Of a stretch of DNA of 37,420 bases, positions 1 to 36,316 are shown one piece after another (position 1 is the stretch's first letter; each line of letters begins with the position of its first letter). The DNA comes from Candidatus Phycocordibacter aenigmaticus (GTDB lineage: Bacteria > Patescibacteriota > Minisyncoccia > Phycocordibacterales > Phycocordibacteraceae): the NCBI GenBank assembly GCA_045401115.1, contig CP174359.1, forward strand, positions 613,247-650,666. Direction: 5' to 3'. A program made the translations under genes and the position numbers. The notes beneath the pieces were generated by a model. The model had not been told where the DNA came from. It saw only the letters and a list, made by a program, of their open reading frames with translations, and did not search any database.

Positions 1-433
1 ACTCCCAGACATTTATTGATTCAAAAAAATCTTTAGTATGACCGATCCAATCTTTTGTGTCGGTAGCATTAAAATCCTGTTCCAGAAACAGGAAGTATCC
101 CTTTGCATAAAGCTTATCTTTGAAACATGATCGAAGCTTTGTATTACCACGGTTCTCTAAGTCTCTTGCAAGAACTTCAATTACATTATAGAAAAGACCA
201 CAATCATTCCACTCATGATATCGTCTGTTACATGTCTGAAATGAGGGTGCTCCAGGGTAATTTAGGTCACGCCATGTGTACCCGCTAGTGCTCCCAAACA
301 CAAACATGAAGAGGCACATTTCAAACACATGTTTTTCATCCTTACGTTTGCGACCACGAGTTTCAAGAGTAGAGATCTTAGGAATCAAGGGTTTTATGAT
401 ATCCCATTGCTTGTTGGACAGTTTTAATATCAT
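1..433 (-). CDS. IS5-family transposase-like protein (DUF4096-like N-terminal domain), runs off the window edge; not in the ORF track
   Basis: Manual translation from ATG 433: MILKLSNKQWDIIKPLIP..RGRKRKDEKHVFE..WRDL..PSFQTCNRRYHEWNDCGLF..LARDLENRG..LRSCFKD, open to base 1. Matches the IS5-type pattern LxxxQW..GRP..WRDL..TxxRRFxxW. Confidence 0.7.
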   Translation of the reverse strand, partial: MILKLSNKQWDIIKPLIPKISTLETRGRKRKDEKHVFEMCLFMFVFGSTSGYTWRDLNYPGAPSFQTCNRRYHEWNDCGLFYNVIEVLARDLENRGNTKLRSCFKDKLYAKGYFLFLEQDFNATDTKDWIGHTKDFFESINVWE

Positions 434-1520: not shown

Positions 1521-1593
1521 GAACTGGATATAGTTCGAACCTTCGGGTATTTGTTGTGTCACATATAACAATTACAAAACTAAAAGCGACAAC

Positions 1594-3318
1594 ATGAATT
1601 ATCACGATAATTACAAAGAGTATGAGTTTGCTATGTATAACAGGAAATCAAGTGAAAGCGATGAAAGACAAGCTCTCTCAATCGAATCACAAAGAGAAAG
1701 AAATCAGCAAACAGCAGAATACTACGATATAAAAATTAAACCTGAGAACATAATTGAGGAATCAAAGTCAGCGAAAAAATCTGGAATGAGACCCGAGTTT
1801 AACAAACTATTAGGCAACATACGGAAAGGAAAAATTCATGGGATTATAGTCTGGAATATAGATCGAATATCTAGAAACGCTGGTGATGCAGGTCAAGTAA
1901 TTGATCTAATTGATGAAGAAAAACTAAAGTATGTCATAACTCCTCAACAGACATTTAAAAACCTACCAAACGATAAAATGATGCTCAATTTCTACTGCAT
2001 GCAGGCAAAGGTTGAGAATGATCATAAAGGTGAGGGTGTGAAAAGAGGACTCATAAAGAAAAGAGAGATGGGTTACCCGCCACATGGTGTAGGCGTCGGT
2101 TACTTAAACGACTCAGGAGAAAAGGGATATAGAACAATCTATCCAGATCCTGAAAGATTTGAAGTAGTTAAACAACTGTTCCAGATGTATCTCACTAGAA
2201 AATATAGTGCGAGACAACTACATATACATGCCAGAGATGAATTAGGACTTACGTCAGTGCCAAGAAAGTCTATTGGTGGGACCCCAATAAGTAAAACTGC
2301 TTTTTATGGAATGTTAAGAAATCCAATATATGCAGGCTTCTTCTATGGCAAGAATGCAGAGAATGAAATGGTGCGATACGAAGTACATAAATCAGTACCA
2401 CGAATGATAACGGAAACTCAACACAAGAAAGTAATTTCACTCCTGAAAAGAAACGGAAACCCACGCCCGTGGTCACATGTAGACGAATACCCGTTCAAAC
2501 AATTCTTGAAATGTGGATCTTGTGGCGGATCGGTCACTGCTGAAAGAAAAAATCAGGTGTATTGTTTTGACTGCAAAAAGAAAACGTCAATTCTGCAGAA
2601 CAATGTTTGCAACGGGTGTGGCAGAGATATATACAACATCAAGAAAAAGACCATTATAGATATAACGTATTACCGTTGTTGTAACAGAAATACGAACTGC
2701 AAGTCGGTAGAAGGTAGTAAAACTGAGACCACTTTAACAAATAAGCTTCTAGAAGATTATGCCCAGAAATTGGCAATATCACCCGCCTTAAAAGAATGGT
2801 GTTTAGATAGCATAGGTATATTAGAACAGAAAGAGAAAAAGGAGGGTAAAAAAATAGAAAAAACATGGCTAGTGAAACTGGAAGAATACAAATCCAAGCA
2901 GGAGAAACTACTTGATGCTCATCTAAACAACCTCATTGATAATGAGGAATACAAAGCAAAGAAAGCTGAAATACAGGATAAGGTTGATACTCTGACAGCA
3001 AAAATAGACCCCATAGTGCGTAAGAAGATAGATATGAAGGAACTACAACGTAAGTTCGATATATTAACGGAATTTGCAGATGTAATTAAAAATGGAGACT
3101 ATGAGGAGAAGATTGAGGCACTCTCCTTAATGGGTTCGAACCTAACGATAACCAGAGAAAAGATTAGTATTAGCAAGACAATTCTGTATCGGGCAATTGA
3201 AAGAGGGCTTTATGAAGCAAAACTCAAAAATCCTATGTTCGAACCTGAAAAGTATCAAGCAAATAAAGAACAAACCGAAGCTTTCGCTTCGGTTTGTCCC
3301 ACTCTGCTCCGCGAGTAG
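1594..3318 (+). CDS. Large serine recombinase/integrase (resolvase, recombinase and Zn-ribbon domains, coiled coil)
   Basis: YNRKSSE catalytic Ser motif, Q..SIESQ, RPEF, DRISRN, NPIYAG, CGSCG Zn ribbon, C-terminal coiled coil. Confidence 0.93.
   Translation: MNYHDNYKEYEFAMYNRKSSESDERQALSIESQRERNQQTAEYYDIKIKPENIIEESKSAKKSGMRPEFNKLLGNIRKGKIHGIIVWNIDRISRNAGDAGQVIDLIDEEKLKYVITPQQTFKNLPNDKMMLNFYCMQAKVENDHKGEGVKRGLIKKREMGYPPHGVGVGYLNDSGEKGYRTIYPDPERFEVVKQLFQMYLTRKYSARQLHIHARDELGLTSVPRKSIGGTPISKTAFYGMLRNPIYAGFFYGKNAENEMVRYEVHKSVPRMITETQHKKVISLLKRNGNPRPWSHVDEYPFKQFLKCGSCGGSVTAERKNQVYCFDCKKKTSILQNNVCNGCGRDIYNIKKKTIIDITYYRCCNRNTNCKSVEGSKTETTLTNKLLEDYAQKLAISPALKEWCLDSIGILEQKEKKEGKKIEKTWLVKLEEYKSKQEKLLDAHLNNLIDNEEYKAKKAEIQDKVDTLTAKIDPIVRKKIDMKELQRKFDILTEFADVIKNGDYEEKIEALSLMGSNLTITREKISISKTILYRAIERGLYEAKLKNPMFEPEKYQANKEQTEAFASVCPTLLRE
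3261..3297 (-). terminator. Intrinsic terminator downstream of tRNA-Asn, embedded antisense in the recombinase CDS
   Basis: 12-bp perfect stem 3270-3281/3286-3297, GAAA loop on the minus strand, followed by TCTTTATTT. Confidence 0.7.
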
Positions 3319-3692
3319 GACTCGAACCTACAACCAACTCGTTACATGTGATCCCAATGTTTCCAAAGGGCATGGACTATATCATCACCCGCTACATAAA
3401 GTAGTGAGGGTGCGAGGCGCTTCCCAGAACATCTCTGTTCTAGTACTCCCGAAGGATAGTCTCTGAACCTTCCTTGAGAAAATATCTCAAAGCTTGGCTG
3501 CTGATTGCCCGTTCTCTTATAGAGAGTGTGGGTTTCCAGTACCGAAAACAAGCTTACGCTTGACGGCATTCACGGTTTTTTAATTTGCTTGGCAAAAATA
3601 AAACCGGAACAATTCACCTCGTTTGCGCACTAGGGTTTCCCCTAGCGGCTGCCTTGTGACAGCGAGCTGCTCTACCATTGAGCTATCGCGGA
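3307..3692 (-). tRNA. tRNA-Asn(GTT), intron-containing: 5' exon 3692-3659, 3' exon 3344-3307
   Basis: Spliced sequence TCCGCGATAGCTCAATGGTAGAGCAGCTCGCTGT^TAACGAGTTGGTTGTAGGTTCGAGTCCTACTCGCGGAG folds as a full cloverleaf with acceptor TCCGCGA/TCGCGGA, G73 and anticodon loop CT-GTT-AA. CCA is not encoded. Confidence 0.93.
3345..3658 (-). ncRNA. Group I self-splicing intron (314 nt, no ORF; P7.1/P7.2 present, IA-like) between anticodon positions 35 and 36
   Basis: P1 GCUGU-C/G-GCAGC with U.G at the 5' splice site; P2 CUAGGG-GAAA-CCCUAG; P3 CGAGGUG/CGCCUCG; Q AAUCAGCAGC; R GUUCAGAGACUA; S AUGAUAUAGUCC; P7 GACUA/UAGUC; terminal G at 3345. Confidence 0.92.
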
Positions 3693-3784
3693 TTATTCTG
3701 TTTTCAATTTCTTCATCCGCGAGAGCTCAAATGAGATCGCGGATTGTTTTTTCACGGAACGGCCCTCTATAGAGAGCTTGTGCT

Positions 3785-3812
3785 ATTTTAGCCAATTTTT
3801 CACGGTATGCAA
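3785..3812 (-). promoter_or_regulatory. Putative sigma70 promoter for tRNA-Asn
   Basis: Minus strand TTGCAT-16 nt-TAAAAT about 90 nt upstream of the tRNA. Confidence 0.5.
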
Positions 3813-34978: not shown

Positions 34979-36316
34979 CTAATAGCTTCTTAATCGTTTA
35001 GCGTTCTGGTGAGTACGAATTTTGTCTAATGCCTTCGCTTCAATTTGACGAATACGCTCACGTGTAACACCGAACTCCTGTCCCACCTCTTCTAGGGTGT
35101 GATATACACCATCCTCAAGCCCATGACGCATAGCAAGGATTTTTCTTTCTTTTGGTGTTAAATCATCAAGGATACTGTGTAGTTGTTCAACTAAAATACG
35201 ATGTGCGGTCTGTTGATCAGGGGCAGGTACGTTAGGATCAGCTACAAAATCAGCACGTTGCGATGCATCATCATCACCTCCTCCAGATGATGAAATAGGT
35301 GCTTCAAGAGAGAGTGTTTCCTGATTAATCTGCTCAATTTGGTAAATTTTCTCAAGGTCAACATTCATTTCAGCAGATACCTCTTCAGGCATTGGGTCAC
35401 GTCCGAGTGCTTGTTCCAAGCGACGCACCACCTGCTTGTACTTCGCGATTGTTTCAACCATATGCACAGGAATACGAATCGTACGAGATTGGTCTGCTAA
35501 CGCACGAGTAATCGCTTGACGAATCCACCATGTGGCATACGTTGAAAACTTAAATCCTTTCGTGAAATCAAACTTATCAACTGCTTTGAAAAGACCGAGG
35601 TTACCTTCTTGAATCAAGTCAAGCAGAGTGAGGTCGCTTGAGCGGCCAACATACTTCTTGGCAATAGAAACCACTAAACGCAGGTTTGCGCGAGCCAATA
35701 AATTCTTTGCCTCCATATCTCCCTCAGTAATTCGTTTTGCAAGGTCACGCTCTTCCTGAGCAGTGAGAAGTGGGTATTGTCCAATCTCACGTAGATACAT
35801 TTGAATAGAATCATGTGCACCACCTTCACCACGATAGCCGCCACGCATAACCACTTCATCTGGCACATCTTCAAGCATGCCGCCTGATTCAAGCACATCA
35901 ATACCTGAAGTAGAGAATCGATCGTAAAGTTCTTCAAGAAAATCTACTTCTTCTTCAATATTCGGGAATATTTTTAGGATTTCGTTATAGGTAATATAAC
36001 CTCGCTCCTTACCTTGCGCTAAAATTGCATCAGCTTTTGTTTCAAGTTGATCACGTTTTCTTGAACGACGTACTGTTTTCTTTACGGTTTTCTTTGCAGT
36101 CTTTTTAGCTGTCGTTTTTTTAGCTGTTCTCTTTGCTGTTTTCTTTGTTGTCGCTTTTTTAGCTGACGCTTTTTTTGCGGTTTTTTTGGTAGCGGTTTTT
36201 TTTGAACGTGTTGCGGTTTTTTTAGCTGTTTTCTTTTTTACTGCTTTTTTAGGCGCTGCTTTCTTTGCCACTTTTTTTGTGGTTTTTTTAGCTGTTTTTT
36301 TAACTTTTTTTGGCAT
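34979..36316 (-). CDS. rpoD: Primary sigma factor RpoD/SigA with a Lys/Ala/Thr-rich N-terminal extension
   Basis: Region 1.1 [11 protein letters not shown], 1.2 YLREIG, 2 [20 protein letters not shown], 4 [18 protein letters not shown]; start set at ATG 36316. Confidence 0.96.

Follow-up and report, generated by a model that had tools for sequence, protein, structure and literature searches.

The stretch of DNA analysed here (the window) comprises 37,420 nucleotides (nt) of Candidatus Phycocordibacter aenigmaticus (assembly GCA_045401115.1, contig CP174359.1, positions 613,247 to 650,666 of the forward strand). Near its left end it carries a gene for a large serine recombinase (LSR) whose 3' end runs into the antisense strand of a tRNA-Asn gene, and a word resembling the tRNA T loop recurs in and around this gene. 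An original prediction, made from the letters alone, had pointed to the repeated word and proposed that it is maintained as DNA. The comparison with relatives demonstrates constraint on the nucleotides of the two copies inside the gene, and suggests that they may be read by the recombinase itself. The features of this part of the window are the following:

1524 to 1542, plus strand: upstream copy of the word, laid out like the P' half-site of an attP-type attachment (att) site, CTGGATA-TAG-TTCGAACCT, with the motif itself at 1533-1542
1594 to 3318, plus strand: LSR gene, 574 amino acids (aa), Pfam Resolvase and Recombinase
3133 to 3144, plus strand: motif A, GGTTCGAACCTA, codons G514-S-N-L517, with the 10-bp palindrome GGTTCGAACC at 3133-3142
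3237 to 3246, plus strand: motif B, GTTCGAACCT, last base of M548 followed by F549-E-P551, 103 nt after motif A
3267 to 3300, minus strand: terminator-like hairpin and T-run for the tRNA, inside the recombinase coding sequence (CDS), 15 pairs, tail TTATTTGCTT
3295 to 3322: putative att core at the right junction, with TGTCC at 3295-3299 and GGACT at 3318-3322 flanking a spacer of 18 bp whose centre is T3308-C3309
3307 to 3692, minus strand: tRNA-Asn(GUU), with exon 1 at 3692-3659, a group I intron of 314 nt at 3658-3345, and exon 2 at 3344-3307
3320 to 3330, plus strand: fourth copy, ACTCGAACCTA, antisense to T loop and T stem, the putative motif of the target (B') half-site

The product of the recombinase gene matches PF00239 Resolvase (E 3.4e-21, residues 13-160) and PF07508 Recombinase (E 6.6e-6, 26.8 bits against a cut-off of 21.1, residues 186-287). 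PF13408 Zn_ribbon_recom reaches only 19.4 bits, under its cut-off of 25.3, and yet the cysteines C324, C327, C339 and C342 are invariant. In a 43-sequence alignment, Y15, R17, K18 and S19 are invariant as well and match the Y-x-R-x-S catalytic motif, S19 being the residue that we take, by analogy, to be the nucleophile. A profile match to the SPbeta integrase 9dxh covers residues 10-315, and residues ~400-500 are rich in charged residues. The C-terminal 260 residues gave no sequence match to any solved LSR, and Pfam searches at E <= 10 with the C-terminal 81 and 274 residues returned the sub-threshold zinc ribbon only. With its catalytic and recombinase domains and the att architecture described below, the protein is classed as an LSR, in which a Cys4 ribbon is likely. 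Among 7,998 scored candidates, 751 homologues were found at E <= 0.001, mostly of ~570 aa and from Parcubacteria/Paceibacteria; the family is spread over Patescibacteria and Flavobacteriaceae. When 43 homologues (down to 31% identity) were aligned, N516, L517, F549, E550 and P551 were invariant and S515 was kept in at least 90%, and the two segments S515-L517 and F549-P551 are the best-conserved residues of the C-terminal third.

Scanning of the plus strand returned exact copies of GTTCGAACCT at 1533-1542, 3134-3143 and 3237-3246. At 3320-3329 stands ACTCGAACCT, which differs from it at two of ten positions and is not recovered when at most one mismatch is allowed. These copies, and the antisense T arm at 3320, are those that the original prediction had named, and both sequence and tRNA detection bear them out; its reading frames are correct as well, since in CDS 1594-3318 motif A is read GGT TCG AAC CTA, giving G514-S-N-L517, and motif B is read ATG TTC GAA CCT, giving M548-F-E-P551. 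Three or more copies of GTTCGAACCT did not appear in any of 100 shuffles of the window (shuffle mean 0.04). However, as a result obtained from the window alone, this clustering is weak evidence, because the word was chosen afterwards and many 10-mers repeat likewise: 60 different ones are present at least three times in the window, and of 300 block-wise dinucleotide shuffles, 57 contain some 10-mer in three copies inside 2 kb, a number that falls to 13 when the 10-mer must have at least 4 G+C. The 7-mer TCGAACC shows no overall enrichment in the window (5 matches versus 3.67 expected), and its four plus-strand copies in the 37 kb are exactly the four noted sites. The source of most other clustered 10-mers is a block of degenerate tandem repeats at 36073-36175, with periods of 12, 15 and 39 nt (e.g., TTTTTAGCTGTCGTT), inside a minus-strand open reading frame (ORF).

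The behaviour of the word in relatives was followed in 77 loci gathered with a pattern for the peptide at residues ~241-250, well away from the motifs, and thus not selected for them. L001-L051 are members of the family; among these, L033 and L039 stop before the region and L046 (26% identity, tRNA-Tyr) is without the motifs, and all 48 remaining loci have TTCGAACCT at the position of motif B, preceded at a constant distance of exactly 103 nt by an A-type word. For the codon test, 47 loci with 30-50% protein identity were matched by the regular expression x[SPQA]NL ... FEP, leaving out L033, L039, L043 and L046. F549 was encoded by TTC, E550 by GAA, P551 by CCT and N516 by AAC in 47 of 47 loci, and S515 by TCG and L517 by CTA in 43 each. 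The base before the TCG of motif A was T in 44 of the 47, and the codon preceding motif B specified at least 11 different residues, yet its final base was G in 45. All six motif codons occurred together in 39 of 47 loci, when 0.028 of 45 loci would be expected from the codon usage of the family given the amino acids, since family-wide TCG accounts for 12.7% of Ser, CTA for 14% of Leu, TTC for 33% of Phe and AAC for 40% of Asn.

As a control, a protein alignment of 46 CDS was mapped to codons (L033, L039, L043, L046, L047 and L051 left out, the window not counted). In the motif columns, Ser was TCG in 41 of 42 sequences, Asn was AAC in 45 of 45 and Leu was CTA in 41 of 45, whereas in other conserved columns Asn was AAT in 67-71%, Phe was TTT in 49-82%, Ser was TCG in 9-22% and Leu was CTA in 8-26%. 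Over 70 non-motif columns with the same residue in at least 85% of the sequences, the share of the top codon ranged from 0.23 to 0.89, compared to 0.91-1.0 in the six motif columns. At motif B, TTCGAACCT was identical in all 49 rows of the alignment; motif A was slightly less strict, with variants in L003, L025, L035, L036, L038 and L043. The codons flanking the word vary, so the loci are not near-identical in DNA. The original prediction had argued for constraint at the DNA level and had suggested synonymous conservation as its test, which it passes: synonymous choice is fixed at the GSNL and FEP codons over 47 loci, and 70 other columns vary. Protein constraint alone cannot explain the word, and this comparison of sequences demonstrates that the two in-gene copies are constrained at the nucleotide level.

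The fourth copy belongs to the tRNA gene. Neither default ARAGORN nor Rfam at the gathering threshold reported an RNA gene in the whole window, because the 314-nt group I intron in the anticodon loop splits the tRNA. This intron matches Rfam Intron_gpI (RF00028) at 45.9 bits (E 1.6e-10), just short of the gathering score of 50. Run in intron mode, ARAGORN found the tRNA and called it Thr(ggt). Splicing by the group I rule, after U and after the terminal G, restores tRNA-Asn(gtt), which is also the identity of intron-less orthologues in other genomes. The assignment to group I is consistent with the match to the core fold, with the final U of the 5' exon pairing with G in P1 (GCUGU/GCAGC), with the final G of the intron and with the tRNA restored on splicing. 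Orthologues of the tRNA-Asn gene in L002, L008, L009, L011, L012 and L015 have introns of 222-589 nt, that of L009 scoring 71.7 bits for Intron_gpI. The CDS of the recombinase overlaps the antisense 3' end of the tRNA by 12 nt, so that it is the antisense tRNA that specifies R573 and E574, and its T stem that provides the stop TAG (3316-3318). Where the T stem has no TAG, the ORF continues as ..QDSNLEP.. (L006, L009, L011, P0002 and P0007). The hairpin at 3267-3300 shows compensatory changes in 5 of 5 consensus pairs across 31 loci and at the same time encodes the conserved ..TE(A/V)FASV..; its position within the CDS indicates that the element exchanges the trailer and terminator of the tRNA for coding sequence.

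In the window, a GTCC-N18-GGAC dyad can be read at 3296-3321, in which the left arm would be the element-derived P and the right arm the tRNA-derived B'. The next TCGAACC lies 83 or 92 nt past motif B in 32 joined loci, the window included. Thirty loci, again including the window, are joined to an antisense tRNA-Asn, 27 of them with a tRNA call by ARAGORN; in L018, L032 and L041, which are cut by the contig end, tRNA-Asn was judged from the T-arm sequence only, and intron-bearing tRNA-Asn genes among the joined loci were miscalled Thr by ARAGORN. L015-L017 have an insertion, show a longer distance from B to the core, and still run into tRNA-Asn. The partner is tRNA-Trp in L043, and in L005 a site that is not a tRNA, with TTCGAAC at the same 83-nt position. 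These junctions demonstrate, at the level of sequence, an association of the element family with tRNA-Asn.

Nine loci have no tRNA at this position, namely L025, L027, L029, L031, L037 and L050 (Flavobacteriaceae), L036 (Sediminibacterium), L021 and L042. Their attP-like ORFs continue as ..L-(E/G)-(L/W)-L-D-N-V-R-T.., and in L021, L029 and L031 GTTCGAAC is read there in the third frame, as V-R-T. TCGAACC lies 88 nt past motif B in L029, L031 and L037 and 97 nt past it in L021; thus, in all four attP-like loci with a recognisable word, it is displaced by 5 bp with respect to the tRNA-joined members of the same subfamily. A TGTCC-N18-GGACA core is present in L025, L027, L029 and L031. In the target arm GGAC directly abuts TCGAACC (3322-3330), and in the element arm 5 nt stand between them. 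For A118-type integrases, PMC3783163 describes a 9-bp ZD (zinc-ribbon domain) motif that occupies positions 16-24 of attP and 11-19 of attB. The 5-bp offset is thus demonstrated in the sequences compared and, by analogy, would fit the zinc-ribbon-domain motif rule of serine integrases, so that, in our reading, the att half-sites would have TCGAACC(TA) as their outer recognition motif. The homologue P0008 (51% identical, Patescibacteria-like) ends in ..RPTLLRMMNEVRT.., which indicates that the attP-like form is also present among closer relatives.

The attP-like and the tRNA-joined forms part ways after ..CTGCT, and the acceptor-stem bases to the right of the core co-vary with the tRNA 5' strand of each host; therefore, the crossover is placed, probably, near T3308-C3309, at the end of the acceptor stem. 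A crossover within the T loop was considered and discarded, since the tRNA runs unbroken through its T arm and the acceptor stem changes together with the 5' strand of the host. The original prediction had envisaged a swap of the C-terminus at the repeated motifs. A swap by recombination does emerge from the comparison, a host-encoded ..RE-stop being exchanged for an element-encoded ..L-D-x-V-R-T.. tail, and its place is the att core near 3308, not the motifs.

From these results we propose that mobile elements of this recombinase family would insert at the very 3' end of tRNA-Asn(GUU). On integration, the last two codons and the stop of the recombinase would come from the tRNA gene read backwards, and the element would bring a replacement tRNA terminator within its own CDS. 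In the target half-site the word would be the tRNA T arm, and in the other half-site of the element it would stand 5 bp further from the centre. Motifs A and B, at 169 and 65 bp from the putative crossover, share with the half-sites only the 10-11-bp word; they have neither the inner GGAC/GTCC nor a dyad partner, and the distance from motif B to the core differs by subfamily (83 or 92 nt). Carrying the outer (ZD-type) word only, they might dock additional protomers of the recombinase, which could help to build or regulate the recombination complex, or could regulate the gene. The upstream copy at 1533, with its full attP-type half-site layout, would be operator-like. We give slightly better than even chances to the reading that the word is a DNA signal, most likely read by the ZD of the encoded LSR, and that the in-gene copies dock extra protomers. 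The recombinase would be the most economical reader, since it is the only gene common to all loci. Binding by the recombinase, or accessory sites, had been among the options named in the original prediction, and it is the one that fits best, given the same word in the att half-sites and its 5-bp offset; for binding itself, the argument is made from sequence.

Several points weigh against this proposal. The in-gene copies are without the inner recombinase-domain motif, and a contact by the ZD alone may be weak. We know of no accessory sites for LSRs. None is described, either, in the accessible part of PMC3783163. The position of the crossover is based on dyad symmetry and on the point of sequence divergence, a clear inverted copy (GGTTCG) is found in the P arm of one subfamily only, and the upstream copy is missing from 40 of 43 other loci. 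Furthermore, the P' word is GTTCGAAC in only 3 of 9 attP-like loci, so motif B is stricter than P', which is unexpected for an accessory copy and could mean another function or another reader. In a bolder form of the proposal, A and B would be ZD-only docking sites that load protomers by the att core and, via putative coiled coils and the exchanged C-terminus, set the direction of the reaction without a separate directionality factor. We regard this form as rather unlikely. If it were true, it would represent a new, self-contained control architecture of a serine integrase in overlapping code, with one word used in three frames.

Another reader of the word, such as a host factor, a regulator in the cargo, or a restriction-modification or methylation system acting on TTCGAA or TCGA, appears quite unlikely. 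A TTCGAA core is a typical palindromic restriction or methylation site; methyltransferase genes are found in the cargo of some loci (L013 and L050), and the better conservation of motif B compared to the att half-site copy would also suit such a reader. However, conservation is asymmetric and extends past the palindrome (GTTCGAACCT, with the following A mainly in motif A), matching the T stem of tRNA-Asn; moreover, the hosts belong to two phyla, the cargo varies by locus with no other shared factor evident, and the 37 kb window has no further TCGAACC on its plus strand. A role in RNA, either as a T-loop-like module in the mRNA or an antisense transcript or through pairing of A with B to close a 93-nt loop for the control of translation or stability, is very improbable in our view. 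The word does resemble a tRNA T loop and is palindromic, GGUUCGAACC being self-complementary, and RNAalifold draws a 5-bp helix between A and B. Nevertheless, over 49 sequences the consensus energy is as weak as -1.18 kcal/mol, none of the 5 pairs covaries and the A-B interval has no further conserved helix, and the motif A variants in L003, L025, L035, L036, L038 and L043 are uncompensated in B. A helix would allow covariation, yet the sequence is invariant. The flanks form no T-arm stem, the word is also used in an att context that is not transcribed, and Rfam was blank at the motifs, both over the whole window at the gathering threshold and by E-value over 3200-3800, where only the group I intron and chance-level matches appeared.

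Still less probable, and far down the scale, is that the in-gene copies serve as alternative or secondary crossover (pseudo-att) sites truncating or exchanging the C-terminus. Their word and its orientation are those of the real att half-sites, and at the main core the C-terminus does depend on the recombination state. However, neither A nor B has a dyad partner or an inner GGAC/GTCC beside it, 48 of 48 motif-bearing loci are collinear at the constant A-B spacing without a junction at A or B, and a deletion between A and B would shift the frame, as 103 is not a multiple of 3. The alternative crossover points of the original prediction therefore find no support. Least of all could the pattern be due to protein constraint and chance only, with the repeat a coincidence or a tRNA-derived fossil, to which we assign a probability close to nil. 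The clustering in the window is only weakly significant, the residues are invariant in the protein, and an origin by read-through into a tRNA is plausible as history, given the ..QDSNLEP.. tails of L006, L009, L011 and P0002. Nevertheless, the synonymous positions are frozen in 43 to 47 of 47 loci, whereas at other positions of these genes the motif codons make up 9-70% of the codons for those amino acids, and the number of loci with all six codons far exceeds that expected; thus, the codon data refute this explanation. On the minus strand, a sigma-70-like promoter that overlaps motif B was also considered and set aside, as it is not conserved in other loci (alignments inspected by eye).

The upstream copy lies 61 nt before the start codon and has no dyad partner. 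Its layout, GGAT-ATAGT-TCGAACC, has the same 5-nt gap as GGAC-AATGT-TCGAACC in the P' arms of L029 and L031. Similar copies are present at -47 to -64 of the start in 3 of 43 other loci (L005, L013 and L017), where they lie inside the element, beside cargo genes. The copy at 1533 is best read as a putative operator-like lone half-site next to the promoter of the recombinase. Accordingly, the autoregulatory operators that had been suggested for the repeated word are plausible for this copy, with its counterparts in three other loci, and for this copy only.

Other candidate regulatory features were observed upstream of the recombinase in relatives. Loci of a more distant subfamily, L015-L050, share a conserved leader ~60-140 nt upstream of the recombinase start (e.g., L019 2825-2967), which the window does not have. 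In this leader, an 11-bp stem, GAGGTAATGAC...GTCGTTACCTC, is followed by a T-run and shows compensatory changes in 9 of 11 pairs over 23 loci, and a second conserved pairing, GCTACACC.../...GGTGTAGC, overlaps it. Judged by these pairings, the leader looks like an attenuator of the terminator/antiterminator type; no Rfam match was obtained for it in L019 and L031. In L004, L005, L007, L009 and L010, a conserved, GC-rich, apparently non-coding block of ~350 nt (..GGGGGTAAGGGGGCTC..) lies ~60-420 nt upstream of the recombinase start and had no Rfam match at the gathering score. In L007, L009 and L010, a LOOT RNA (RF03000, 83-85 bits) is located ~1.5 kb upstream.

Over the left part of the window, up to ~3300, the GC content stands at 0.35-0.38, compared with ~0.41-0.49 over most of the remainder, and this difference places the recombinase at the right edge of a foreign island. 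To the left of the recombinase, the island contains:

2 to 433, minus strand: N-terminal fragment of an IS5-family transposase (DUF4096, Pfam), cut by the window edge
506 to 1213 and 1344 to 1520: two ORFs without a Pfam match

The ORFs within 506-1520 have weak homologues upstream of the recombinases in L005, L011 and L012. We considered whether the upstream copy could be the left junction of a 1.8-kb element with a single gene. Its flank resembles P' arms, and fusion of the two ends would give the reading ..LLRE-LDIVRT.., as in L021 and L029. This candidate was rejected: the low-GC island runs on to the left edge of the window, the ORFs to the left of the copy have the weak homologues just mentioned upstream of recombinases, the equivalents in L013 and L017 adjoin cargo (a methylase and a primase-helicase-like protein, respectively), and the centre dinucleotides do not match. 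A displaced tRNA 3' end, searched for with at most 3 mismatches of 16, was present neither in the window nor in any locus, which also counts against the 1.8-kb element. Probably, the true left end of the element lies outside the window.

The recombinase is the sole gene common to the Patescibacteria and Flavobacteriaceae loci, in which the cargo genes differ. In Flavobacteriaceae the gene lies inside a larger mobile element with a second LSR, a helix-turn-helix (HTH) regulator, a RepO-like protein, a type IV coupling protein, RadC and a methyltransferase, which accounts for an unrecombined site within a chromosome. Among distant LSR genes from other phyla (L052-L076), many (at least 12 of 26 by eye) likewise have their end within the T arm of an antisense tRNA, with C-termini such as GFEP, GIEP, GLEP and DSNQRP, and LSR genes overlapping the 3' halves of tRNA genes look common. 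At least nine loci of distant LSRs ending in tRNA T arms were examined and had no in-gene copies (one extra 8-mer in L057), which indicates that the feature is specific to this recombinase family.

Serine integrases are widely used tools for genome engineering and are thought to need att sites of ~40-50 bp and, for excision, a directionality factor. A combination of in-gene copies of the word, a T-arm target, a swapped C-terminus and a terminator inside the CDS would show a new layer of control in cis, and such a family would be a clear case of overlapping coding for protein and for a DNA signal. Synonymous recoding can destroy the word without changing the protein and so offers a testable handle. 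These observations also document the use of tRNA-Asn by mobile elements of the Patescibacteria, a little-studied group. A literature search, whose reach did not extend to the large computational LSR surveys, found no description of this family, of the word, of extra sites for LSRs or of the features just combined.

Like the Listeria A118/LI integrase, phiC31, Bxb1 and the SPbeta integrase, the present protein combines a resolvase domain, a recombinase domain and a Cys4 zinc ribbon, the last of these likely, and like serine integrases it goes with a short dyad-symmetric att core. Here too, the two half-sites differ in the place of an outer motif on the 9-bp scale, which in the target is 5 bp nearer to the centre than in the element (PMC3783163). 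In contrast to the integrases listed, this family targets a tRNA gene at its 3' end, where the T arm provides the outer motif, its attP reaches into the 3' end of the integrase gene, so that integration would replace the C-terminus, the terminator of the tRNA lies inside the CDS, two invariant copies of the outer motif stand in the CDS, and some members have in addition a lone attP-type half-site before the promoter.

Resemblances to other systems are partial. Sites II and III of the res sites of Tn3 and gamma-delta resolvases are inverted repeats that each bind a dimer of a small resolvase and lie close together, within ~120 bp. As in res, the extra sites lie on one side of the crossover, here within ~170 bp, and could impose architecture or directionality. 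Unlike in res, they are single words of 10-11 bp in direct orientation, 83-103 bp apart and without dyad partners, inside a CDS and accompanying an LSR of 574 aa, a layout that places them outside the definition of res. The integrase IntS of KplE1 reportedly regulates its own expression via sites in the att region that overlap the int promoter, and tyrosine integrases of the lambda type use arm-type sites; the enzymes of both systems are tyrosine recombinases with a dedicated arm-binding domain. Common to both and to the present family are recognition copies outside the core, one of them by the recombinase promoter; in contrast to both, the enzyme here belongs to the serine recombinases, and the copy near the promoter lies outside the junction. 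Finally, mycobacteriophage BPs is said to have integration-dependent immunity, with attP in the 3' end of the repressor gene and a tyrosine integrase. As in BPs, attP lies within the 3' end of a gene and integration alters the encoded C-terminus; unlike in BPs, the gene altered would be that of the serine recombinase itself, with the new C-terminus and stop taken from an antisense tRNA.

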